In this document: piece after piece, positions 1,799 to 27,705 of the stretch | Position numbering within the stretch: the first letter of the stretch is position 1 | Layout: every line of letters starts with the position of its first letter | NCBI GenBank assembly: GCA_021203905.1 | Contig: JAJQAG010000004.1 | Location: 129,939-193,938, forward strand | Reading direction: 5' to 3' | From: Coprobacillus sp. | GTDB lineage: Bacteria > Bacillota_I > Bacilli_A > RFN20 > CAG-826 | DNA: 64,000 bases | Translations under genes and position numbers: made by a program | Notes under the pieces: generated by a model | Database searches by the model: none | Told to the model about the DNA's origin: nothing | What the model saw: only the letters and a program-made list of their open reading frames with translations

Positions 1799-3078
1799 TA
1801 TTCAACATATTCGAAGATGAAGTCATCGAGTTGGACTGTATCTCCATCTTTCGCTCCCATTCTTTCTAATTCATCATCCACTCCCACTCTTCTTAAATGG
1901 GAGATGAGTTTGAGCATTCCCTCATCAGTGGAAATGTTACACATTTGATAGTACTTCTCTATTCTATCACCACTGATGACGAAATAATCAGATTTTACTT
2001 TTGTAATTTCAAATTCTTTCTCTTCTTCGCCGAGAGTATAGACCTTGATGGTCTCTTCCTCTTCATCTTCTGTATAAAGAGGGAACATCGGAGTGGTCTT
2101 TAAGGTTTCAAAGCATTTATCGATGAGTTTATCCACTCCCCAGCCTCCTAAAGCGGAGATTTCAATTATCTCTTTTTTCACTTTCTTTCTTAAGGAAGCG
2201 AGTCTCTCTTTACTTCCTTCTTCATCCATCTTTGTGGCGACAAGGATCATCGGTCTCTTAAGAAGACCAAACCCATATTCTTTGAGTTCTTTATTAATGG
2301 TTTTATAGTCTTCATAAGGATCTCTCCCCGTATCAGACATATCAATAAGATGGACAATGACACGACATCTTTGAATATGACGGAGAAATTGTAAGCCTAA
2401 ACCTTTACCAAGATGGGCTCCCGCGATTAAACCAGGAAGATCTGCAGCCACAAAGGAATCATTACCATGTACCACTACTCCTAGGTTAGGCACTAAAGTG
2501 GTAAAAGGATAATCCGCAATCTCGGGTCTGGCGGCGCTTATGACACTAAGAAGAGTGCTTTTCCCAACACTTGGAAGACCCACAAAACCAACATCCGCAA
2601 GAAGTTTTAATTCAAGAACTAAACGTTTTGTTTCTCCAGGCGCTCCATTCTCCGCGACTTTTGGCGCTTTATTGACAGAGGACTTAAAGCAAGTGTTACC
2701 TCTTCCACCACGTCCTCCTTTCGCCACACAGATCATCTTCCCATCTTCGTTTAAATCTCCAAGGAATTCATTATCCTCTTCTAGGTAAACGACTGTCCCA
2801 ATAGGAACATCGACGATGACATCTTTTGCCGCTTTTCCGTAGCGGTTTTCTGGACCTCCATTTTCCCCATCCTCTCCAATAAAGGTTTTAGAATGACGAA
2901 AATTATATAGGGTATTTATTGTTTTGTTTGCTCTGAAATAGATGGATGCGCCACGACCGCCATTTCCTCCACTTGGACCTCCATGAGAGACATATTTCTC
3001 TCGATGGAAGGCAATCATCCCATCTCCACCTTTTCCGCTTCTAACTTCAACTATGGCACGATCGACAAATAATGACAT
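1798..3078 (-). CDS. obg: GTPase Obg/CgtA
   Basis: 426 aa with a Gly-rich Obg fold at the N-terminus, G1 motif GLPSVGKST, DxxG, and a C-terminal OCT-type extension. It keeps the rplU-prp-rpmA-obg synteny. Confidence 0.97.
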   Translation of the reverse strand: MSLFVDRAIVEVRSGKGGDGMIAFHREKYVSHGGPSGGNGGRGASIYFRANKTINTLYNFRHSKTFIGEDGENGGPENRYGKAAKDVIVDVPIGTVVYLEEDNEFLGDLNEDGKMICVAKGGRGGRGNTCFKSSVNKAPKVAENGAPGETKRLVLELKLLADVGFVGLPSVGKSTLLSVISAARPEIADYPFTTLVPNLGVVVHGNDSFVAADLPGLIAGAHLGKGLGLQFLRHIQRCRVIVHLIDMSDTGRDPYEDYKTINKELKEYGFGLLKRPMILVATKMDEEGSKERLASLRKKVKKEIIEISALGGWGVDKLIDKCFETLKTTPMFPLYTEDEEEETIKVYTLGEEEKEFEITKVKSDYFVISGDRIEKYYQMCNISTDEGMLKLISHLRRVGVDDELERMGAKDGDTVQLDDFIFEYVE

Positions 3079-3084
3079 AAGGTT

Positions 3085-3113
3085 ATTATACCCATTTTTA
3101 TTCGTATAAACAA
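3085..3113 (-). promoter_or_regulatory. obg promoter, leaderless-type
   Basis: On the minus strand: TTGTTT (3113-3108), 17-nt spacer, TATAAT (3090-3085), then AACCTT and the ATG at 3078. No SD lies between the -10 and the start. Confidence 0.5.
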
Positions 3114-3179
3114 AGTTTATTTACGAATAAGTAAACCTGTTTTATCATTAAATCTATAAAGGAAGTTTGTGTTTAAGGA

Positions 3180-3480: not shown

Positions 3481-3804
3481 TTAATCTATGGTCACCACTT
3501 CACTGACGGAGACATATTGGGGATAACTTTCTTTAATTGTCTTTAGAGAAGTTAACATTGTCTCGATGACCACTTTGTCATGCTCGCTTGGTTCTTCTTT
3601 GGCCACCAAGCTCGCATATCCACTTTCGAGTTGGAGAGAGAATTTATTGCTGTCTTGGAGAGAATTGAATCCTCCAGTGACGATACTTGAGACAGCGGCA
3701 CATATGAGATCTTCACCTTTTTCAGCGCTTCCACTATGACCAGTGACGAGAAGTGTTACCGGAGTGGTGCTATGATTTGAATAGGTGTAGACAACTTTAA
3801 TCAT
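3481..3804 (-). CDS. prp: ribosomal-processing cysteine protease Prp
   Basis: 107 aa lying between rplU and rpmA. It has the GHSG and ICAAVS (His/Cys dyad) motifs typical of the YsxB/Prp family. Confidence 0.9.
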
Positions 3805-4115
3805 TTGGTGTTGATACTTTCAATGACTAAGCATGTGTAGGGCTGACGATGGCCCATGGTTTTTCTCTCATTGGTTTTTGCTCGATAATGGAAAACGCGA
3901 ATTTTTCTTTCTTTGCCCTGTTTTTCCACTGTAGCGGTGACACTAGCGCCACTCACATAGGGTTTCCCAACAGAGTTTTTCTTACCGTCAGAGATGAATA
4001 GCACTTTATCGAGAGTGACACTTGAACCCTCTTCAGCGGGAAGTTTTTCAACATAGACATGTTGACCAACCTCGACACGGACTTGCTTTCCACCCGTTTC
4101 AATGATTGCGTACAT
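3801..4115 (-). CDS. rplU: 50S ribosomal protein L21
   Basis: 104 aa beginning [11 protein letters not shown]..., the canonical L21 N-terminus. It overlaps the prp start by 4 nt. Confidence 0.97.
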
Positions 4116-4259
4116 TACTTGGCCTCCTTATTTTAAATTCACTAAGGACTCGCTATGAAGGTCGAGAAGAATCTCAGTTAGTAAACCTTTTCTAGGCGGT
4201 TGTAGCTAGTGAGGCTAAACAACGCTTGATACTATAACATAGTTATAATATGCCCGCAA
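4116..4259 (-). promoter_or_regulatory. rplU operon promoter plus about 110-nt structured leader (L21-leader-like)
   Basis: On the minus strand: TTGCGG (4259-4254), 17 nt, TATAGT (4236-4231). The untranslated leader contains complementary segments (ACTAAC.../...CTTAGT, CTCG...CGAG). Firmicutes are known to have an L21 leader at this position. I did not verify the structure. Confidence 0.45.
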
Positions 4260-5285: not shown

Positions 5286-7865
5286 TTACTTTAACTTAGA
5301 GAGCAAGGCCTTGAGATTCTCTTCGTGTTTCTTCTTCTTCGCTTGCTCAAGCTCGACCTTTTCTTTTGGGGCTTTAGAGACAAAACTTGGATTAGAGAGT
5401 AAGCTCTCACATCTATTGATCTCACTCTTAAGATATTCTATCTCTTTTAAGATGGCGTCTTTGTCAGTCTCTTCTTCTACAATTAAGAGATCAAAACTAG
5501 AGAATGTATAGAGAGAACCTTCTTTCTTAGAGATGTTTTTATCATTAATTGTGAGCTCATCTGTAAAGGTAAATCTCTTAAATAAAGGAGTAATATCATA
5601 ACTATATAGACCTTTATAGTTGAGAGAGACGACTAACCCTTGATTGGGAGAGATTTTTCTCTCAATTTTATAGTTTCTCACGACCTTAATAGCACTCACT
5701 AAAGAATCTATGAGTTCATCACTCTCTTTATTAACCCACTTTGCGTGATACTTAGGATAGGTTTCTAAGTTCACACTTTCTCGGTGAGAAGGAAGTGATA
5801 AATAGATCTCTTCACTGATAAAAGGAGTAAAAGGAGAGAGCATTAAAACAATATTCTTAAGGCAATAATAGAGGACTTGATAAGTAACCTCTCTCTCCTC
5901 ACTTTGAAGAGAAACTTTACTCATCTCGATATATGTAGAGCAGAAATCATCGTAGACAAAGTCATAGAGAAGAGAACTCGCTTGATTAAAGTTATAGTGT
6001 TCCATATGGGTGGTGACCTTCTTTGTCACCTCTTCCATCTTATTAATAATCCATTGATTAAGAGGAGATAAGTCTAAACGAGAGAGATTCTTTACTGGTT
6101 TAAAGCCTTCTGGTAAGACACTTAAGACATAGCGTGCGGAATTATAGACCTTATTTAAGTAATTAGAGGCCGCAACGACCTTATTTTCACTATATCTCAT
6201 GTCAAGACCTGCTGCGGTATTCGTGGTAAGGAAATATCGAAGAGCATCCGCACCATATTTATCGATAACCACAAGGGGATCCACTCCATTACCTAAGGTT
6301 TTTGACATCTTTCTTCCTAATTCATCACGACAGAGACCATGAATGATGACATTACGGAAAGGAATCTGGTTATTAAAATGGAGAGATTGGACCATCATAC
6401 GACTGACCCAGAAAAAGATTATGTCATATCCTGTAATAAGAGCGGAGGTTGGGAAATAACGCTGAAATAATGGATCTGTAGTATCAGGCCAGTTTAAAGT
6501 GGCAAAGGGCCAAAGAGCACTTGAGAACCAAGTATCTAAGACATCACTATCTTGTTCGTAGTTATTAATATCTTTTGGGGCCTCTTCACTAACGATGACA
6601 GAGCCATCAATCTTTGAATAATACGCTGGGATACGATGTCCCCACCTAAGTTGACGAGAGATACACCAATCTTCGATATTATCCATCCAGCGGATAAGAG
6701 TATTATTAAATCTTTGTGGGATAAAATTCACTTTCCCTTTACCCTTTTGTGTCTCAATGACTTTTTGGGCAAGAGGTTTCATCTTCACAAACCATTGTTT
6801 GGAAATCATTGGTTCCACAACAGCGCCAGAGCGCTCACTATGTCCCACAGAGTGAGTGATGGTTTCTTCTTTGATAAAATCATCATTATCTATTAGTTCT
6901 TTTAATAAAGCTTCACGACAATCATATCTATCTAGGCCTTGATATTTCCCGCAGTGCTCATTCATCTTCCCATCTAGCGTCATAATCACAGGTTTCTCGA
7001 GATGATATTTCTCCCCAATAAGAAAGTCATTAGGATCATGAGCGGGTGTACATTTCATCACTCCCGTTCCAAAACTAACATCGACATATTCATCACAAAT
7101 TACTTCAATTACTTCTTTATTTGCGGGATTTATCACTTTTTTACCGATATATTTTGTATATCTTTTATCTTTAGGATTCACTACAAGACAGACATCTCCA
7201 AACATGGTCTCGGGTCTTGTTGTGGCCACTGTGAGATATTCATCACTATCCACTAAACGATACTTAAAGTAATACATCTTTCCTAGATCATCGCTATGGA
7301 TAACTTCAACATTACTTAAAGCGGTCATCTGCACTGGATCCCAGTTTATGATCCTCTGTCCTTGATAGATAAGTCCTTCCTTATACATTTGGACAAAGAC
7401 TTTCTTTACCGCTTTTTGCATCCCCTCATCAAGGGTGAATCTTTCCTTAGAATAATCAAGGCTTAATCCAAACTTCTTCCACTGCTCATGAATGCTAGAT
7501 GCATACTCATCTTTCCATTGCCAAGCGTAGGTTAGGAATTCATCACGACTTAAATCATGAGGATTAATCCCACTATTTCTGAGTTTCTCACTGACTTTAG
7601 CTTCAGTAGCAATACCCGCATGATCCATTCCTGGAAGGAATAAGACATCATATCCTTTCATTCTTTTATAGCGGCAGATAATATCTTGTATGGTCGTGTC
7701 CCAAGCATGTCCTAAATGGAGTTTTCCGGTCACATTAGGGGGAGGAATAACGATGGAATATGGTTTCTTAGTGAGATCACCACAAGTAAAATAACCTTTC
7801 TGACACCAGGTTTCATACTTCCCTTCTTCCACTTTTTTTGGATCGTATCTTTTATCCATAACCAC
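5286..7865 (-). CDS. valS: valine--tRNA ligase
   Basis: 859 aa with a class I HIGH-type motif (PNVTGKLHLGHA), KMSKT, and a C-terminal coiled coil. A T-box lies upstream. Confidence 0.98.
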   Translation of the reverse strand: MVMDKRYDPKKVEEGKYETWCQKGYFTCGDLTKKPYSIVIPPPNVTGKLHLGHAWDTTIQDIICRYKRMKGYDVLFLPGMDHAGIATEAKVSEKLRNSGINPHDLSRDEFLTYAWQWKDEYASSIHEQWKKFGLSLDYSKERFTLDEGMQKAVKKVFVQMYKEGLIYQGQRIINWDPVQMTALSNVEVIHSDDLGKMYYFKYRLVDSDEYLTVATTRPETMFGDVCLVVNPKDKRYTKYIGKKVINPANKEVIEVICDEYVDVSFGTGVMKCTPAHDPNDFLIGEKYHLEKPVIMTLDGKMNEHCGKYQGLDRYDCREALLKELIDNDDFIKEETITHSVGHSERSGAVVEPMISKQWFVKMKPLAQKVIETQKGKGKVNFIPQRFNNTLIRWMDNIEDWCISRQLRWGHRIPAYYSKIDGSVIVSEEAPKDINNYEQDSDVLDTWFSSALWPFATLNWPDTTDPLFQRYFPTSALITGYDIIFFWVSRMMVQSLHFNNQIPFRNVIIHGLCRDELGRKMSKTLGNGVDPLVVIDKYGADALRYFLTTNTAAGLDMRYSENKVVAASNYLNKVYNSARYVLSVLPEGFKPVKNLSRLDLSPLNQWIINKMEEVTKKVTTHMEHYNFNQASSLLYDFVYDDFCSTYIEMSKVSLQSEEREVTYQVLYYCLKNIVLMLSPFTPFISEEIYLSLPSHRESVNLETYPKYHAKWVNKESDELIDSLVSAIKVVRNYKIERKISPNQGLVVSLNYKGLYSYDITPLFKRFTFTDELTINDKNISKKEGSLYTFSSFDLLIVEEETDKDAILKEIEYLKSEINRCESLLSNPSFVSKAPKEKVELEQAKKKKHEENLKALLSKLK

Positions 7866-14608: not shown

Positions 14609-14685
14609 TGGCGCCCTCGAGGCGACTCGAACGCCTGACCCACAGCTTAGAAGGCTGTTGCTCTATCCAACTGAGCTACGAGGGC
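14609..14685 (-). tRNA. tRNA-Arg (anticodon UCU), CCA encoded
   Basis: I folded the cloverleaf by hand: acceptor GCCCTCG/CGAGGGC, D-arm GCTC..GAGC, anticodon stem ACAGC/GCTGT with loop CTTCTAA, T-arm AGGCG-TTCGAGT-CGCCT, discriminator G plus CCA. Confidence 0.93.
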
Positions 14686-21148: not shown

Positions 21149-22063
21149 TTAGTCACTGTTAAAAGGTTCGAGTGAATCGAGAATATTTTTAAAATATTCT
21201 GGGAGAGGACTATTAAAGGTCATCTCTTCTTTTGTAGTGGGATGAACAAGGGTTAACTGGTAGGCATGAAGCATCTGTCCATTGGGGCTGAGAGGTTTAA
21301 CATTCTTTTCACCATATAAAGGATCACTTTCAATGGGATAACCAAGATAGGCAAGGTGCACTCTAATCTGGTGAGTACGGCCGGTCTCTAGATCACATTT
21401 AATAAGGGTGTGACTCTTATATCTTTTAACCACTTCAAAGTAGGTCACCGCGCTTTTACCCCCTCTGACCACCGCTTGTTTCATGGGATACTTTTTATCT
21501 TTATCAATGGGTAAATCAATCTTCGCTTTATTCTCCTTAATGTTTCCTCTCACCAGAGCATAGTAACTTCTTCTCATCGTGTGATCTTCAAGTTGCTGTG
21601 AAAGAAAGGCATGAGCATAGTCATTCTTCGCCACACAGACGAGTCCAGAGGTATCTTTATCGATGCGGTGGACAATCCCAGGACGAAGATCCCCGTTTAA
21701 AGTGGAGAGTTGAGCGAAATGATAGGCAAGAGCATTGGCCATGGTGTGGGTCTCATTACTGATTCCAGGGTGCACTACCATACCCTGAGGTTTATCCACA
21801 ATGATAATGTCATCATCCTCATAGACAATATTAAGGGGAATATCTTCTTTAAGAAGAGTGACTTCTTTCTCGACCTCTTCCACACTGATTTCATCATCAA
21901 GTTTAGTGATATAAGAAGGTTTGACTTTAGTGTCATTAACTAACACTCCCCCTTCTTTAATAAGTGTGGCAATACTACTTCTGGACATATTAGGAAAAGA
22001 TAAGGCCAAGGCCTTATCAATTCTCATATCTTTAAGGTAATCGTCAACTTTTACTCTTTCCAC
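21149..22063 (-). CDS. rluD: RluA/RluD-family 23S rRNA pseudouridine synthase
   Basis: 304 aa with an N-terminal S4 domain and the catalytic motif HRIDKDTSGL. It follows lspA, as in Bacillus. Confidence 0.93.
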   Translation of the reverse strand: MERVKVDDYLKDMRIDKALALSFPNMSRSSIATLIKEGGVLVNDTKVKPSYITKLDDEISVEEVEKEVTLLKEDIPLNIVYEDDDIIIVDKPQGMVVHPGISNETHTMANALAYHFAQLSTLNGDLRPGIVHRIDKDTSGLVCVAKNDYAHAFLSQQLEDHTMRRSYYALVRGNIKENKAKIDLPIDKDKKYPMKQAVVRGGKSAVTYFEVVKRYKSHTLIKCDLETGRTHQIRVHLAYLGYPIESDPLYGEKNVKPLSPNGQMLHAYQLTLVHPTTKEEMTFNSPLPEYFKNILDSLEPFNSD

Positions 22064-22886
22064 GAGAGGTCTTCTCCTCTATGGTTTCTTTAGTTGGGGT
22101 CTCTACGGGGGCGACTACAACGTCCTCAACCTTTTCTTCTTCTTTTGGATTTGTGGATTCCTCTCCATGTATTAAAGCGTCCATCTGAGCTTGATGAAGC
22201 GCCACTTCGCTCTTAGCTTTCTCTTCTTTCTCTTTCTTACTTTGTTTTCCGTCCCAGACAAAGAGCCAAATGATAAGCATAATCACTCCGACGACTAAGC
22301 AGGCATCCGCCCAGTTAAAAGTGGGGAACTCATAATTTCCAAAGTGGAAAGCAATCCAATCAATCACTCCACGAGTGCTCCCACTGACACCTAAATAGGA
22401 GGAAGTATAGAAGGCTCGATCAATCAGGTTTCCAATACAGCCCGCAAGAATAATCATGCAACAAGCTCTCGCAAATTTGGGAATCTTTTTATATTTGACT
22501 GCAAAAACAGTAATGATTACTACTGCGGCAATAACACTAATACCAACAAAAACAATGATATTTGCAGTGTAATTACCAGTATCTATTCCAAAAGCCATCC
22601 CATCATTGATGACATATTTTACCCCAAGGAAGTTATTAATAAGCCAGATCTCTTCGCCTTCACTGCTATAGTAGTAAGGAACATAGTCCTTAATTAAAGT
22701 TTTGGTGACGATATCGATAATAAACATCAAAACGAAGAGCCAAATAAAAGACTCGAAGATCCACTTCCAAGTAGCATCCCATTTAGGATGTTTCTTGACA
22801 GTAGCGGTTACTTCTTGTTCGGAAACCTGTGCGCTCTCTACGGGTGTGGTTTCAATAGGAGTTTCTTCCTTGACTTTCTTTGGCAT
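22044..22886 (-). CDS. lspA: lipoprotein signal peptidase II with long terminal extensions
   Basis: The core has LspA motifs (NxGxAFG-like NDGMAFG, and IGNLIDR). I chose the start at ATG 22886, which overlaps the ileS stop (TAATG). There is an acidic/Lys-rich N-terminal extension of about 45 aa and a C-terminal extension of about 80 aa. Confidence 0.88.
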   Translation of the reverse strand: MPKKVKEETPIETTPVESAQVSEQEVTATVKKHPKWDATWKWIFESFIWLFVLMFIIDIVTKTLIKDYVPYYYSSEGEEIWLINNFLGVKYVINDGMAFGIDTGNYTANIIVFVGISVIAAVVIITVFAVKYKKIPKFARACCMIILAGCIGNLIDRAFYTSSYLGVSGSTRGVIDWIAFHFGNYEFPTFNWADACLVVGVIMLIIWLFVWDGKQSKKEKEEKAKSEVALHQAQMDALIHGEESTNPKEEEKVEDVVVAPVETPTKETIEEKTSRGKSKS

Positions 22887-25621
22887 TACTTTTTCTCCAT
22901 GAGATGATGACATCTTGGGCAAAGATATGAATCTTTCTCTACCTCTATGGCGTCATAATCATAGTTCCAACATCTCTCACAATAGTGTCCACTATGACGA
23001 TGGACATCAATGATTGAGTGGTTATATTCATCTCCTTTAATTTCTTCTTTATAGATATTAAATCCGGAGACGACAAAGAGATTCTTTAAATCTTCTTTGT
23101 TTATTTTATCAAATAAGTGGGAAATATTTACATCTTTTATGAAAATATTTACTTCCGCTTCTTGACTAGAACCAATAGTTCCTTTTTCTCTCTCCACTTC
23201 AAGTGCCTTTAAGACTTCACTTCTTAAAGCCTTAAAGAGTTCGTATTCCAAGAGAAGAGCGTCATCCACTTCCCCCTCTTTTGGAAAGTCGAGCAATTGG
23301 ACATATTCCTCTCTTTTCCCAGGAAGATTCTTATTAAATTCGTCCATGGTGAAAGGAAGAATAGGATTAAGTAATCTTAAGATAGATTCTGAGACGAGAT
23401 ACATCACTGATTGCATCTGGTTCCTTCTCTTTGAATCTTTTTCATCACAATATAAAGTGTCTTTAGCAATATCTAGATAGAAGGAAGATAAATCACTAGA
23501 AAGGAAAGTCGTAATATAACTCATTCCGTTCGCGTAGTTATATTCATCAAAACTCTTTCTCACTTCTCTCTCGACATAGTGTAAACGATTAAGGATATAG
23601 GTATCCACAAGGGTAAAATCACTAGTAGTATTCTTGGGATCAAAGTCCACAAGATTCCACGACATAAACTTTAAAGTATTACGGATTTTACGATAGACTT
23701 CACTTACTTGTTTAATGATATCTTCACTCATTCTCACATCGCTTTGATAGTCGATTGTCCCGCAGTAAAGACGAACGACATCGCTACCATACATATCTAT
23801 CACTTTAAGTGGGTCAGTACCATTACCTTTAGACTTAGACATCTTCTCCCATTTTTCATCCATGATAAACCCATGGGTGACCACGGCATCATAGGGGGCG
23901 TGACCATAGACTGCGGTCGAGATAATAAGGGAAGAATTAAACCATCCACGATACTGATCGCTCCCTTCTAAGTAGAGATTTGCGGGGAAATTTAAACCTT
24001 TATCGACGATATTGTACATAAAGGAAGAACCACTATCAAACCACACATCCATGATATCGACTTCCTTAGTAAATATCCCGTGGGGAGAATGAGAATTTTT
24101 ATAGCCTTTAGGGAGTAAATCTATCGGGTCTTTTTCATACCATACATTTGACCCATTTTCTCTCACTAATTTAATAATATTATCAAAGACTTCTTTCTCA
24201 ATAATGGGAGTCTTATCTTCACAGTAAATAATGGGGATAGGAACACCCCACGCTCTCTGACGAGAGATACACCAATCGCTACGATCTTTAATCATATTGA
24301 CCATTCTTACTTCTCCCCAACTTGGGTACCATTTTACCTTATGAATTTCATTTAGAAGCTTCTCTCTAATGGGTTCAATTGAGCAGAACCATTGATCCGT
24401 CGCTCTAAAGATTAAAGGTTTATTAGTTCGCCAATCATGAGGATAGGAGTGAATAAAGGTTTCATGTTTTAAAAGATGTTGATTCTTCGCGAGAATATCA
24501 AGAACGACATCATTTCCTTTCTCGTAGAATAAACCACTTAACTCTGCTCCGACACTCTCATCAAAATATCCCTTCTCATCCACTGGGCAATAAGGTTCAA
24601 TCCCATATTTTTGACAGACAATAAAATCATCCACACCATGTCCACCAGCGGTATGGACAAATCCCGTTCCAGCGTCATCGGTAACATGAGTTCCAAGAAT
24701 AATGGGAACTACTCTCTCATAGAAAGGATGAGAACATTTAACAAGTTCCACTTCTTTTCCCTTAAATTCCCGAATGAGTTTCACATCTTTAAGATTAAGT
24801 TCATTCACTAATTTATCTTTTAGAGAAGTAAGGAAGGCTAAGTTTCCTCTGTTTGTACAATACACTCCATAAGTAAAATCTGGATGAGCGGATATCGCCA
24901 TATTTGCAGGTAAGGTCCATGGGGTGGTGGTCCAAATAACCACTTGATCACCTTTGTTTAAGATGCCATTTCCTTCAATGACATCAAAGGCCACATAGAT
25001 AGAGTGGCTTTCAACATCTTTATATTCAATCTCTGCTTCTGCTAAAGCGCTTTCACTACTCGGGGACCAATAGACAGGCTTAAGGCCTTTATAGATAAGA
25101 CCATCAAGCGCCATCTTGGCGAAACACTCTAGCTGGCTAGCTTCGTATTCTTTTAAAAGGGTGAGATAAGGTTTCTTAAAATCTCCCACGACTCCTAAAC
25201 GTTGGATTTCTTCTTTTTGTCTTTCCACTTGCTCCAAAGCATAGTCTTTACATTGGTCACGGAACTGGACAATAGGTGTGGTCTTTCGATTGATTCCCAT
25301 CGCTGTGACTTTATTTTCAATAGGGAGACCATGGGTATCCCAACCAAAGACAAAGGGTGTTTGATAACCACACATATTCTTATAACGGATGGTGATATCT
25401 TTAAGCACTCGATTAAGCATATGCCCACAGTGCATATCTCCGTTAGCGTAGGGCGGTCCATCATGGAGAGTGTACTCTGGACACTCTTTTCTTTTCTCCA
25501 TCATTAAAGAGTAGAGATCCTCATCTAACCACTTCTTGATAAGAACTGGTTCTTTAGAAGGGAGGTTTCCTCTCATCTCAAAATTACTTTTATTCATCAG
25601 TAAGGTGTCTTTATAATCCAT
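22886..25621 (-). CDS. ileS: isoleucine--tRNA ligase
   Basis: 911 aa with a HIGH-type motif (PYANGDMHCGH), KMSKS, and C-terminal Cys clusters (CERC...CPRC). A T-box lies upstream. Confidence 0.98.
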   Translation of the reverse strand: MDYKDTLLMNKSNFEMRGNLPSKEPVLIKKWLDEDLYSLMMEKRKECPEYTLHDGPPYANGDMHCGHMLNRVLKDITIRYKNMCGYQTPFVFGWDTHGLPIENKVTAMGINRKTTPIVQFRDQCKDYALEQVERQKEEIQRLGVVGDFKKPYLTLLKEYEASQLECFAKMALDGLIYKGLKPVYWSPSSESALAEAEIEYKDVESHSIYVAFDVIEGNGILNKGDQVVIWTTTPWTLPANMAISAHPDFTYGVYCTNRGNLAFLTSLKDKLVNELNLKDVKLIREFKGKEVELVKCSHPFYERVVPIILGTHVTDDAGTGFVHTAGGHGVDDFIVCQKYGIEPYCPVDEKGYFDESVGAELSGLFYEKGNDVVLDILAKNQHLLKHETFIHSYPHDWRTNKPLIFRATDQWFCSIEPIREKLLNEIHKVKWYPSWGEVRMVNMIKDRSDWCISRQRAWGVPIPIIYCEDKTPIIEKEVFDNIIKLVRENGSNVWYEKDPIDLLPKGYKNSHSPHGIFTKEVDIMDVWFDSGSSFMYNIVDKGLNFPANLYLEGSDQYRGWFNSSLIISTAVYGHAPYDAVVTHGFIMDEKWEKMSKSKGNGTDPLKVIDMYGSDVVRLYCGTIDYQSDVRMSEDIIKQVSEVYRKIRNTLKFMSWNLVDFDPKNTTSDFTLVDTYILNRLHYVEREVRKSFDEYNYANGMSYITTFLSSDLSSFYLDIAKDTLYCDEKDSKRRNQMQSVMYLVSESILRLLNPILPFTMDEFNKNLPGKREEYVQLLDFPKEGEVDDALLLEYELFKALRSEVLKALEVEREKGTIGSSQEAEVNIFIKDVNISHLFDKINKEDLKNLFVVSGFNIYKEEIKGDEYNHSIIDVHRHSGHYCERCWNYDYDAIEVEKDSYLCPRCHHLMEKK

Positions 25622-25912
25622 ACTCTCTCCTTAAAAAGAAATAAAAAGCATCCATATCTAAGGACGCTTTCGCGCGGTACCACCTTAGTTCTAGAGAACC
25701 CTCTCTAGCGCTTCATTAGCCTAATAACGTTTAGAAAACGGAGACTTACTCTTAGTTCAGTACTCATAAGAAGGAGTGATATCTATACATCTCTTTCTTG
25801 TTGACCTTTCCATCCACTGCCAACTCGCTGTAAGGGGGTGATATATAAACTTGTCTCCTAATTGCTTACTAACAAGCAAGATTATTATAGAAATAAAGTT
25901 TCTATAACGCAA
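25622..25912 (-). promoter_or_regulatory. T-box riboswitch leader of ileS with its promoter
   Basis: Promoter is TTGCGT (25912-25907), 17 nt, TATAAT (25889-25884). The T-box AACTAAGGTGGTACCGCGCG lies at 25690-25671, with a terminator AAGCGTCC...GGATGCTT plus TTTTATTT. ATC followed by A in the stem I region is the candidate Ile specifier. Confidence 0.9.
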
Positions 25913-25924
25913 GGAAGTTTATAA

Positions 25925-26392
25925 ATAGTATTAGACAGACTATGCTCTAATATCGATAAGTATGTTCCACTTTTAAGCAACTATTTTGCAGTGGCAACCC
26001 CAGATTACAGAACTTATCAAGATATGAACGATAATGTAATCCGTTACAACACTTACAGGAATCGATGGATTGGTGCGTATCTACAAGAACGGGGAATCAA
26101 AGTCATTCCAACCATTGGGTGGGGTAGTAAGCAAACCTTTAAGTATGCCTTTTCCGGGGTGGAAAAAGGAAGTGTCGTGATTGTCTCCACAATTGGTTGC
26201 CAAAAAGTTAAGAAAGATTTTATAAGGGGGTATAACAAGATGCGAAAAGTTATTAAACCATCGATAGTTATCGTTTATGGGAAACTAATCCCAGGAATAA
26301 AAGGCAAAATCATAAATTTTGCTTATGAAGACGCATTTTTAGGACATGATATATCCAATCATATCGAAAATATCAAAAAGGGGGTAAAATAA
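25925..26392 (+). pseudogene. 5'-truncated DUF4417-like gene remnant
   Basis: The frame is open from the stop at 25922-25924. ..PDYRTYQDMNDNVIRYNTYRNRWIGAYLQERGIKVIPTIGW..GSVVIVSTIG matches my recollection of the DUF4417 core (PDFS..Y..YRNRW..G..VIPT). There is no ATG and no SD; only a GTG at 25991. The N-terminal part of the family is missing. Confidence 0.55.
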
Positions 26393-26394
26393 AC

Positions 26395-26805
26395 ATGGGT
26401 GGACGAGGAGCATTTGCCGATTCTAACAATCAAAATTTCACCTTTGTTGAAGGTGGCCAAACTTACCGAACAATTAAAAAATATAAAGGGTTTGAAACAA
26501 TCGAAAAAATTGATCAAACCAAAAATACTGCTATCCCTTTTTATTCCCATTCTGGAAGCAACATATATGTAGTAGTCCAACAGAATAAGATTAAAAATAT
26601 AACAGTGTACGGAGAAAACCACAATGTAGTTACAAGTATTGATTTTTACAAAAAGCACCACGGAGTGATTCCCCATACGCATCCTCATGGGATTCATACA
26701 AATGATGGACCCGGAATCCCACCAACAGAAGAAGAATGGAAGTTGATACGATACATCAAAAAGAAAACGAGGTTAAAATGTTTCAATGATCAAAGCACCA
26801 ATTAA
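26395..26805 (+). CDS. small His-rich protein, possible orphan toxin module (136 aa)
   Basis: The ATG is preceded by AAGGGGG. The ORF starts MGGRGAF and contains the His cluster KKHHGVIPHTHPHGIHT. It is followed by two immunity-like paralogues. I could not confirm a family. Confidence 0.5.
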   Translation: MGGRGAFADSNNQNFTFVEGGQTYRTIKKYKGFETIEKIDQTKNTAIPFYSHSGSNIYVVVQQNKIKNITVYGENHNVVTSIDFYKKHHGVIPHTHPHGIHTNDGPGIPPTEEEWKLIRYIKKKTRLKCFNDQSTN

Positions 26806-27283
26806 TTATTATGGCGAATGCAAATCAATTAATATCTTCTATGACTACTACTATCCACTAAAGAGTGTTGAAGATTTTTGCAATGTCTGCATGGTTTTTG
26901 AGTACGATGGTGTCCTCTATCTTCTAGATGAGGAGATGGTGGATCCAGACATATTTCCTAACAATAAAAATGACGGATGCGATTACTCCATGAGAAGAAT
27001 CTACCGCTTGAAGTTACAAGACGACGGAACTTACCAAAGAACTTTACTTGCTACATATAGAACACTAGCAAAAGTCCTCACGGAATGGAAAGTAGACGGT
27101 GTCCCCTTAGAATCCATGTTTGGAATGGACAATATGAGAGTAATCGAAATGTATTCTCGAGAGTATCGAGAAGAAAACACACTAAACTTTAAAGAATATG
27201 CCGAGAGGTATAAGAGAAATAATGAACCAAACGACAAAAAGACCAAAAAACACAAAAAGAAATGGTGGGAAAAATTGCGATGA
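26786..27283 (+). CDS. immunity-like protein, paralogue 1 (165 aa)
   Basis: It overlaps the upstream ORF by 20 nt. It shares about one third of its residues with the next ORF (FY..YY, Y.G..Y...EE, FPN...DG.DY..R..Y.L...DG, LL..YR, W..DG.P) and has a Lys-rich tail. Confidence 0.6.
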   Translation: MIKAPINYYGECKSINIFYDYYYPLKSVEDFCNVCMVFEYDGVLYLLDEEMVDPDIFPNNKNDGCDYSMRRIYRLKLQDDGTYQRTLLATYRTLAKVLTEWKVDGVPLESMFGMDNMRVIEMYSREYREENTLNFKEYAERYKRNNEPNDKKTKKHKKKWWEKLR

Positions 27284-27663
27284 CAGACAATCACTTTGAT
27301 TCACTAGATGAATTCTACAATTTATACTATGAACGCCGCCCTTATCCTGGACCCGATTACATGGATATGGATTTCTATTACAAAGGAAAGTTTTATTGGT
27401 ACATGGAAGAAGGCATCATGAGAGAAGATTTTCCAAATTTATACCACGATGGGGGAGATTATGCCGTTAGAATTGCTTATGAATTGATACCAGAAGATGG
27501 GAAGCCGATGTCGAAAGAAAAGTACGATTTTACAAAGTGCAAGTGTATATTATTAGGAAAATATCGCTTGATGGAGGATATTCTCAATGATTGGATAATC
27601 GATGGGAAGCCATTTAAAGATGTCCTCATTGATAAAGAGACACATATTTACGATATTAGATAG
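27280..27663 (+). CDS. immunity-like protein, paralogue 2 (127 aa)
   Basis: I chose the start at ATG 27280, which overlaps the upstream TGA (ATGA) and has GGTGGG 10 nt upstream; the track start at 27262 is also possible. It is a paralogue of 26786..27283. Confidence 0.6.
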   Translation: MTDNHFDSLDEFYNLYYERRPYPGPDYMDMDFYYKGKFYWYMEEGIMREDFPNLYHDGGDYAVRIAYELIPEDGKPMSKEKYDFTKCKCILLGKYRLMEDILNDWIIDGKPFKDVLIDKETHIYDIR

Positions 27664-27671
27664 TTCCTATT

Positions 27672-27705
27672 AAAAAAAAAGGTGGCTGGGCCACCTTTTA
27701 TTTAT
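27672..27705. terminator. bidirectional terminator (island / ftsZ)
   Basis: Perfect 9-bp stem AAAGGTGGC-TGG-GCCACCTTT (27678-27698), with an A-run upstream and a T-run downstream. It abuts the ftsZ stop codon. Confidence 0.85.

Follow-up and report, generated by a model that had tools for sequence, protein, structure and literature searches.

Paralogous small proteins encoded downstream of an Ntox24-like protein in Coprobacillus sp. as candidate immunity or antitoxin proteins of a recurrent gene cassette

Secreted polymorphic toxins are large proteins of several domains, in which an N-terminal domain serves trafficking or secretion and the toxin tip at the C-terminus varies. Canonical type II antitoxins contain a DNA-binding domain (helix-turn-helix (HTH), ribbon-helix-helix, or AbrB), autoregulate their operon, and are usually encoded upstream of the toxin. 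Ntox24 is a predicted toxin of the RNase type with an all-beta domain and conserved Y, H, and H residues, which occurs in polymorphic toxins of the type VII secretion system and of the MuF type with Imm50 and Imm53 as known immunity families, and also in apparent type II toxin-antitoxin systems with an uncharacterised antitoxin, gi 139439131 (Zhang et al. 2012, PMC3482391). The supplement of PMC3482391 contains neither an Ntox24 alignment nor an identification of gi 139439131. The MuF polymorphic toxins of phages are accompanied by small downstream immunity genes (PMC5576092), and the toxin Bxa is neutralised by two immunity proteins (PMC11699363). The two-protein switch CapH/CapP induces immune operons on DNA damage, e.g., that of the cyclic-oligonucleotide-based antiphage signaling system CBASS (bioRxiv 10.1101/2022.04.27.489752, PMC13228613). 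The locus described here lies in a stretch of 64,000 nucleotides of a Coprobacillus sp. genome (assembly GCA_021203905.1, contig JAJQAG010000004.1, positions 129,939 to 193,938), and this whole stretch is called the window in the following. It contains two tandem small open reading frames, ORF A and ORF B, directly downstream of a gene for a small Ntox24-like protein, which is called mid.

ORF A and ORF B probably encode neutralising proteins, i.e., immunity proteins or antitoxins, of the mid protein, and a probability of about 0.6 is given to this reading, which is based on sequence comparisons. It is the best supported one because of linkage in both directions, translational coupling, the occurrence of arrays, the combination of acidic and basic isoelectric points (pI), and purifying selection. 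The first-pass annotation of the window had described the two genes as an immunity-like pair 3' of a toxin-like ORF, and this description gained support from the linkage, the coupling, and the arrays as well as from orphan copies and from a locus with a decayed toxin gene.

The linkage to a toxin-like gene had been set beforehand as a test, and it turned out to be strong both ways. A scan with mid as query, for which one genome per species was used, yielded 36 loci in Lachnospiraceae, Ruminococcus, Oscillospiraceae, Christensenella, Erysipelotrichia, Phascolarctobacterium, Succinimonas, Duodenibacillus, Saccharibacteria, Staphylococcaceae, and other metagenome-assembled genomes (MAGs). An A/B-like ORF followed mid directly at 35 of the 36 loci, and a DUF4417 gene preceded it directly at 33. 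With an A/B query, mid was found directly upstream of the A/B-like gene at 65 of 78 evaluable metagenome loci. The junction between mid and the A/B-like gene was an overlap of exactly 4 nt in 61 of 78 unique junctions. Adjacency and co-transcription of a putative toxin gene and its partner across unrelated genomes are indicated by these three counts.

The copy number and the arrangement of the A/B-like genes point in the same direction. The gene order is DUF4417-mid-AB-mid-AB-AB-mid-AB at locus L123 and DUF4417-mid-AB-mid-AB-AB at L114, where the third copy is just 38% identical. The mid copies of L123 and L114 are 85-87% identical. Further arrangements are mid-AB-AB-AB (L119), mid-AB-AB (L128), and AB-mid-AB (L106). 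Orphan A/B-like genes with neither mid nor DUF4417 nearby were found at 13 of the 78 metagenome loci. Orphan loci are L161-L163 and L166 on Ruminobacter-type contigs as well as L160, L136, L140, L148, L169, and L208, and at L160 the gene 5' of the orphan encodes an unrelated Cys-rich protein of 173 aa. The closest analogue of the window pair was found at L006, which encodes P0004 and P0005, about 30% identical to each other. At this locus (2961-3122), and also at L007-L009, mid is cut to a C-terminal remnant that covers positions 75-126 of its hidden Markov model (HMM). The intact tandem A/B pair of L006 lies directly 3' of the remnant, and DUF4417 is absent from the locus. Arrays, extra copies, orphans, and intact A/B genes beside a decayed toxin gene are the behaviour typically expected of immunity genes.

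In the window the genes form an island on the plus strand, which is flanked by the minus-strand housekeeping blocks ileS-lspA-rluD (21149-25621) and ftsZ-ftsA-rsmH-mraZ (from 27702). The island contains four ORFs, i.e., a DUF4417 fragment, mid, ORF A, and ORF B. The same ileS/ftsZ site harbours an island in a related genome, GCA_965326065, which is called L001 below. The features are as follows:

25916-25931, no strand: deletion junction, between two collinear blastn blocks in the comparison with L001
25991-26392, plus strand: 5'-truncated DUF4417 ORF, 133 aa, GTG start (Pfam DUF4417, E 3.9e-33)
26395-26805, plus strand: mid, intact, 136 aa, pI 9.4; Ntox24-like predicted toxin, based on a weak Pfam match and on its family
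26786-27283, plus strand: ORF A, 165 aa, A/B-family paralogue; core acidic, C-terminal tail Lys-rich
27280-27663, plus strand: ORF B, 127 aa, A/B-family paralogue, acidic, pI about 4.75
27677-27699, no strand: bidirectional intrinsic-terminator hairpin with a 10-pair stem and T runs on both strands

The hairpin closes the island and is common to the convergent ftsZ gene. A good Shine-Dalgarno sequence, AAGGGGG, precedes mid, and the end of mid is overlapped by the start of ORF A by 20 nt. ORF A is 100% identical to the MAG protein LUC31_03045.

The first-pass annotation had placed the two ORFs at exactly these coordinates, with the ATG of ORF B at 27280, and both were found there. It had estimated an identity of about one third, and BLASTP indeed aligned A and B over 109 aa with 29% identity and 9% gaps (E 3e-12, a value for this single comparison), confirming that they are paralogous. 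The alignment contains all of the shared elements that had been listed, FY..YY, Y.G..Y...EE, FPN...DG.DY..R..Y.L, LL..YR, and W..DG.P. The FPN..DG.DY signature is common to A and B, but it characterises a small subgroup and not the family, as it is found only in the window and in L001 and, in part, in L006/P0004. Two further details were also right, namely an internal insertion of 10 residues (KEKYDFTKCK) in ORF B and a Lys-rich tail of ORF A, which has about 40 residues and a pI of 9.8, compared to a pI of 4.6 for the core. The proposed translational coupling was verified as well, i.e., in the ATGA at 27280-27283 the stop codon of ORF A overlaps the start codon of ORF B. An alternative ATG at 27262 would extend ORF B to 133 aa; the start at 27280 is favoured because the orthologue in L001 has 127 aa.

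Both genes have an orthologue in L001. P0002, the orthologue of ORF A, shares 82% identity with it, its N-terminus agrees, and its gene likewise overlaps mid by 20 nt; P0003, the orthologue of ORF B, shares 85% identity. The ratios of nonsynonymous to synonymous substitution rates (dN/dS) between the orthologues were 0.087 in the case of A and 0.045 in that of B, dS being close to saturation. Judged by these ratios, A and B are under purifying selection. The low values and the paired orthologues indicate that both genes are functional and have been retained together. With about 30% identity between them, the sequences of A and B also imply that their divergence is ancient.

A and B belong to an unnamed family of small acidic alpha+beta proteins. 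They had no match in Pfam (none at E <= 1), NCBIfam, or PADLOC, and their matches in PHROGs were weak and non-significant. The annotation had suggested a comparison with Imm, SUKH, and other immunity families, and it did not reveal a relative, because A/B match no Imm or SUKH family in Pfam. Searches with sequence profiles against the PDB yielded nothing significant, and Foldseek searches with the model of B found nothing at E <= 0.001 in the PDB and in BFVD. The AlphaFold2 model of B, which was built from a nine-sequence alignment, has a predicted local distance difference test value (pLDDT) of 87 and a predicted template modelling score (pTM) of 0.82; the topology is a helix, four strands, two short helices, and a strand. 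Word-indexed protein searches with A, B, and mid returned the respective own cluster and one orthologue each, and an exhaustive profile search from a narrow alignment of four sequences returned 7 representatives. This low number is due to the divergence of the window subgroup, and thus it is a matter of sensitivity and not of true rarity. Typical members are frequent in data from gut and rumen, and some clusters comprise 25-83 members, on hundreds of contigs. Every member is annotated as 'hypothetical protein', e.g., WP_019003325.1 of Succinimonas amylolytica and WP_093143969.1 of Ruminobacter amylophilus. A typical member has about 115 aa, begins with MR.NEY.SLEEF, and ends with IMDD.TEILGQD.

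The conservation was analyzed with 45 non-redundant members. The invariant or nearly invariant positions are F12, Y16, F32, Y34, Y39, I107, and F112 in the numbering of B. All conserved positions are aromatic or hydrophobic, and there are no conserved polar residues of a catalytic type. The absence of conserved polar residues would fit a binding protein, and it supports a neutralising role, as do the faster evolution of A/B compared to mid and DUF4417 and the correlation of their distances with those of mid. No DNA-binding domain was found in A/B with Pfam. The median pI is 4.5 for A/B-like proteins and 9.45 for mid proteins, and thus the charges are complementary.

The mid proteins are basic, single-domain proteins of 125-136 aa with the N-terminal leader MGGRGAF; the orthologue of Succinimonas amylolytica DSM 2873 is WP_019003326.1. 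The first-pass annotation had regarded the upstream ORF as toxin-like. This view is backed by its family, as 19 of 68 non-redundant homologues match Ntox24 at E <= 0.1 (best E 4.1e-6), compared to at most 5 for the next family, and as a Y and three H residues are invariant. The mid protein of L124 reached 23.3 bits, the curated cutoff being 24. In the 68 sequences, M1, G2, R4, G5, Y58, H88, H94, and H96 are invariant, and A6, G21, R56, I82, D83, P93, and H101 are nearly so. The conservation of Y, H, H, and H therefore fits the Y, H, H signature described for Ntox24 (PMC3482391). These matches support a relationship of mid to Ntox24 at the level of the family, while the window protein alone falls short of the cutoff. 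A single-sequence model of mid consists mostly of beta strands and one C-terminal helix; its confidence is low (pLDDT 43), and an all-beta character is suggestive only. Profile searches of the PDB with mid and with DUF4417 gave no significant match. Two other assignments of mid were considered and rejected. A packaging nuclease of the HNH type or an Acb1-like enzyme had been conceivable from the position before terminase genes and the His-rich motif, but none of the 68 members matched an HNH family, and Acb1 was matched once, with an E of 0.039.

In the complete form the cassette has five genes in about 2.7 kb, XRE HTH - M78 peptidase - DUF4417 - mid - A/B. The two genes 5' of DUF4417 in the relatives match Pfam HTH_3 and Peptidase_M78 (ImmA/IrrE), and PADLOC assigned them to capH (E 3.1e-11) and capP (E 3.3e-7). 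The HTH/M78 pair is present in 57 of 71 cassettes with A/B, versus 1 of 68 phage loci without A/B. In L001, the closest relative, the regulator is a 294-aa CI-like HTH protein only, and in the window a CapH/CapP-like gene pair was not found, the genes being deleted. The cargo genes DUF4417, mid, and A/B and the cassette architecture matched no model of PADLOC (v2), and no description of the cassette was found in the literature on DUF4417, Ntox24, or MGGRG. Cassettes are located among unrelated housekeeping genes or beside restriction-modification (R-M) and AbiE systems, and neither they nor their flanks contain secretion-system genes. They were also considered as parts of prophages, but the flanks of L114, L124, and L109 encode an ABC transporter, R-M, and AbiE and no phage structural genes. 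The cassette adjoins other defence-type genes at L124 and L125 (Candidatus Saccharibacteria) and at L109. The neighbours encode a MutH-like nuclease, a Dam methyltransferase, and a NERD protein at L124, and AbiEi/AbiEii and a serine recombinase-JetD_C fusion at L109. At L005 the cassette is inserted in a pst operon.

Some loci have other small ORFs downstream of mid. Those of L135 (96 aa), L040 (100 aa), and L064 (117 aa) were evaluated as distant A/B relatives and rejected (hhalign E 0.033-0.25). ORFs of 76-96 aa that end with ..W.GKKFWE.E...WVDD were observed between mid, or the HTH gene, and the A/B-like gene (L135 3685-3975, L206 3685-3975 and 6927-7214, L133 1929-2159). Their C-terminal motif resembles the motif I.DGK.F..V of A/B, but with an hhalign E of 0.065 they were not accepted as A/B homologues.

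The mid family is also abundant in phages, with at least 114 confirmed homologues in IMG/VR. The phage genes lie beside DUF4417, just upstream of terminase genes, and the same layout is known from Streptococcus pyogenes phage A25, where Gp26 is a DUF4417 protein and is followed by Gp27 of 136 aa (PMC8066415). The mid proteins cluster in two clades, one of cassettes, where A/B accompany 39 of 40 unique sequences, and one of phages, where they accompany none of 47. A viral scan with an A/B query found one IMG/VR contig, which bears the whole cassette. The phage contigs L023-L032, L038, L039, and L044 have an inverted order, i.e., an MGGRG-leader protein, mid, and then a DUF4417 protein of 227-232 aa. 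At least 48 other small plus-strand ORFs of the phage loci L016-L095 share the MGGRG[AG] leader, sometimes as ..LFGGRGAS, and they fall into at least 18 unrelated sequence clusters. Examples are L046:3330-3737 and 3737-4048, L043:5019-5594 and 5607-5990, L024:5555-6001, and L004:4717-4989. Within the first 60 aa the leader motif was present in 176 of 3956 plus-strand ORFs versus 3 of 5016 minus-strand ORFs. The leader ORFs are grouped together with mid and DUF4417 on the 5' side of the terminase genes, and a few have an HNHPxG (JAB/RadC-like) motif. They look like a polymorphic set of putative effectors with a common leader; no literature on the MGGRG leader pattern was found.

In the proposed mechanism, mid would encode a toxin, and the A/B protein, encoded directly 3' of it, would neutralise this toxin by binding to it. 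Ntox24, to which mid is related, is a predicted nuclease toxin domain. If the analogy with CapH/CapP applies, DNA damage or phage infection would probably switch on the complete cassette. The presence of two paralogues may serve against toxins of two specificities, namely the resident mid and related variants that enter the cell; as an alternative, A and B may act jointly as a heteromer.

The comparison with L001 also revealed the state of the window copy. With blastn, window positions 22001-25916 aligned with L001 2067-5968, and 25931-29496 aligned with L001 7419-10979. About 1450 bp of L001 are missing at 25916/25931, comprising the gene for the CI-like HTH regulator as well as codons 1-68 of DUF4417. 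Judged from this alignment, the window cassette is a deletion derivative without the regulator and without the 5' third of DUF4417, in which mid, A, and B are intact. The DUF4417 ORF of the window covers positions 69-176 of the 183 profile positions, and full-length orthologues have 221-250 aa. No Shine-Dalgarno sequence was evident before its GTG. The truncation and the GTG start without a Shine-Dalgarno sequence thus make it probable that this ORF is a remnant. The mid, A, and B genes of the window have kept all residues that are invariant in their families. The dS values between the window and L001 ranged from 1.2 to saturation for the island genes and from 0.67 to 0.79 for the flanking genes ileS, ftsZ, and ftsA. 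The higher dS of the island suggests allele exchange or a separate history of the island.

Several results weigh against a neutralising role of A and B. The toxicity of Ntox24 is itself a computational prediction, and the mid protein of the window matches Pfam Ntox24 (PF15529) with an E of 0.0024 and 18.6 bits, i.e., below the cutoff of 24 bits. With the Pfam HMMs, no Imm family, Imm50 and Imm53 included, was matched at E <= 0.5 by any of the 45 A/B-family members. The 47 unique phage mids have no A/B-like partner, and therefore mid may lack intrinsic lethality, or else phages have another way to neutralise it or do not need one. DUF4417 is as tightly linked to mid as A/B, and thus the two-component picture is incomplete. 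The distances of A/B track those of mid with an r of 0.90, but the other gene pairs have r values of 0.83-0.84, and high correlations in all three pairs are what co-inheritance predicts. Some of the arrays come from MAGs, in which strain-mixture assembly could inflate duplications. In the window, no consensus sigma-70 promoter was found on the plus strand between ileS and the DUF4417 remnant.

The equally tight linkage of the three genes, with their compact junctions, could also mean that A/B are positive accessory subunits of a DUF4417-mid enzyme complex, i.e., an adaptor, a specificity factor, or a sensor, which, for example, recognises a phage component and thereby directs or licenses the enzyme. 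A/B have the largest mean distance and are the fastest-evolving component (0.58, compared to 0.48 for DUF4417 and 0.42 for mid), as a recognition module would be, diverged duplicates could broaden the range of recognition, and the CapH/CapP-like control of the cassette resembles that of immune operons. This explanation is nevertheless judged unlikely, because the orphan A/B genes at 13 of the 78 loci persist without mid or DUF4417, and because the intact pair beside the decayed mid of L006 is easier to explain by a protective protein than by a subunit whose enzyme is absent. Moreover, the match of acidic and basic proteins and the phage mids without A/B suggest that A/B are dispensable for the activity of mid. 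It is less probable still that A/B are acidic mimics of nucleic acids, or other anti-defence or anti-restriction factors, that travel as passengers on the DUF4417-mid cassette. Their small size, their strong acidity with the median pI of 4.5, the predicted fold without a significant match, and the horizontal spread of the cassette over Firmicutes, Proteobacteria, Saccharibacteria, and others would agree with such a role. However, A/B are essentially absent from viral contigs, the one in IMG/VR having the whole cassette, and the 4-nt overlaps at 61 of 78 junctions as well as the repeated mid-AB units are those of a functional pair and not of a passenger.

A different question is whether the copy in the window is still in use. 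It is possible, though not the favoured view, that it is a dead remnant and that mid, A, and B are not expressed or not functional in this genome. The deletion of 1450 bp took away the regulator with its promoter region and 68 codons of DUF4417, no consensus promoter of the sigma-70 type was found in the upstream region, and the truncated DUF4417 begins at a GTG without a Shine-Dalgarno sequence. In contrast, the ORFs of mid, A, and B are intact and lack none of the residues that are invariant in their families, the Shine-Dalgarno sequence of mid is good, and the dN/dS values versus L001 are low, although most of this divergence may predate the deletion. Such a decay concerns this copy, and it is compatible with the immunity reading for the family.

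The neutralising role of A/B could be part of a larger scheme, which is advanced tentatively and has rather low odds. The cassette HTH - M78 - DUF4417 - Ntox24-like - A/B might represent an undescribed conflict system that is derived from phages, is inducible by DNA damage or phages, and combines MGGRG[AG] effectors with an immunity repertoire of A/B proteins. The phage DUF4417 would then be the constant partner of polymorphic effectors with the MGGRG[AG] leader, mid among them. The A/B protein would guard against the own mid, and duplicate or orphan copies, as with A and B in the window, would guard against related effectors borne by phages.

Two observations in the window are independent of the cassette. 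A terminator-like hairpin is located in the leader just 5' of the ileS start codon (25644-25671, minus strand). Its position suggests an attenuator; neither a T-box nor any other Rfam family scored at the gathering level at this site. The sole matches of the window at the Rfam gathering level were an L21 leader and one tRNA (4135-4211 and 14612-14685, minus strand), which are ordinary and not connected to A/B.

The results place three orphan families, i.e., the A/B-like proteins, the MGGRGAF/Ntox24-like proteins, and DUF4417, into one recurrent cassette of Firmicutes, Negativicutes, Proteobacteria, and Saccharibacteria from gut and rumen. Provided that the immunity reading is true, A/B would represent a new immunity or antitoxin fold and the first experimental handle on Ntox24-type toxins outside of secreted systems. 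The link to a CapH/CapP-like switch suggests an uncharted immune-type operon, which is absent from PADLOC v2, and the MGGRG[AG]-leader proteins beside DUF4417 and 5' of the terminase genes suggest an undescribed effector system of phages. For this genome the message is modest, i.e., it has a partly deleted copy of the cassette.

The described systems resemble the cassette in different respects. Compared to Ntox24 with Imm50 or Imm53 (PMC3482391), mid is related to Ntox24, with conservation of the Y and H residues, the next gene downstream encodes a small non-catalytic protein, and tandem as well as orphan copies occur. In contrast, mid is a stand-alone protein with a conserved leader of six residues, MGGRGA, and without a secretion or trafficking domain, A/B match neither Imm50 nor Imm53, and DUF4417 and the regulator pair are additional parts of the present module. 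The locus was rejected as a secreted polymorphic toxin system, because mid is a single-domain protein of 125-136 aa and secretion-system genes are not nearby. A likeness to these systems is that the MGGRG[AG] leader is common to many unrelated small ORFs of phages. Type II toxin-antitoxin modules share with mid and A/B the two small coupled proteins, one basic and enzyme-like and one acidic and fast-evolving, the lack of an export apparatus, and the location on chromosomal, horizontally mobile cassettes. They differ in that A/B are encoded downstream of mid and have no DNA-binding domain, that the cassette is regulated by a separate pair of an HTH protein and an M78 peptidase, and that DUF4417 is a third conserved gene. 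A/B were thus not regarded as canonical type II antitoxins, in view of the downstream position, the absence of a DNA-binding domain, and the separate gene for the HTH protein. The cassette differs from the CapH/CapP immune operons in its cargo of DUF4417, mid, and A/B, which matches no PADLOC model, and in the window copy the switch is lost; the likeness to these operons and to the ImmR/ImmA switches consists in the two genes 5' of DUF4417 in the relatives, which match capH and capP. In contrast to the MuF toxins, mid is not fused to MuF, and in phages it lies beside DUF4417, 5' of the terminase genes, without an A/B partner. On the other hand, Ntox24 is listed among the toxin domains linked to MuF, and relatives of mid are abundant in phages. 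A and B are paralogues, in contrast to the two immunity proteins of Bxa, which are not related, but Bxa is a precedent for one phage-related toxin that is neutralised by two different proteins.

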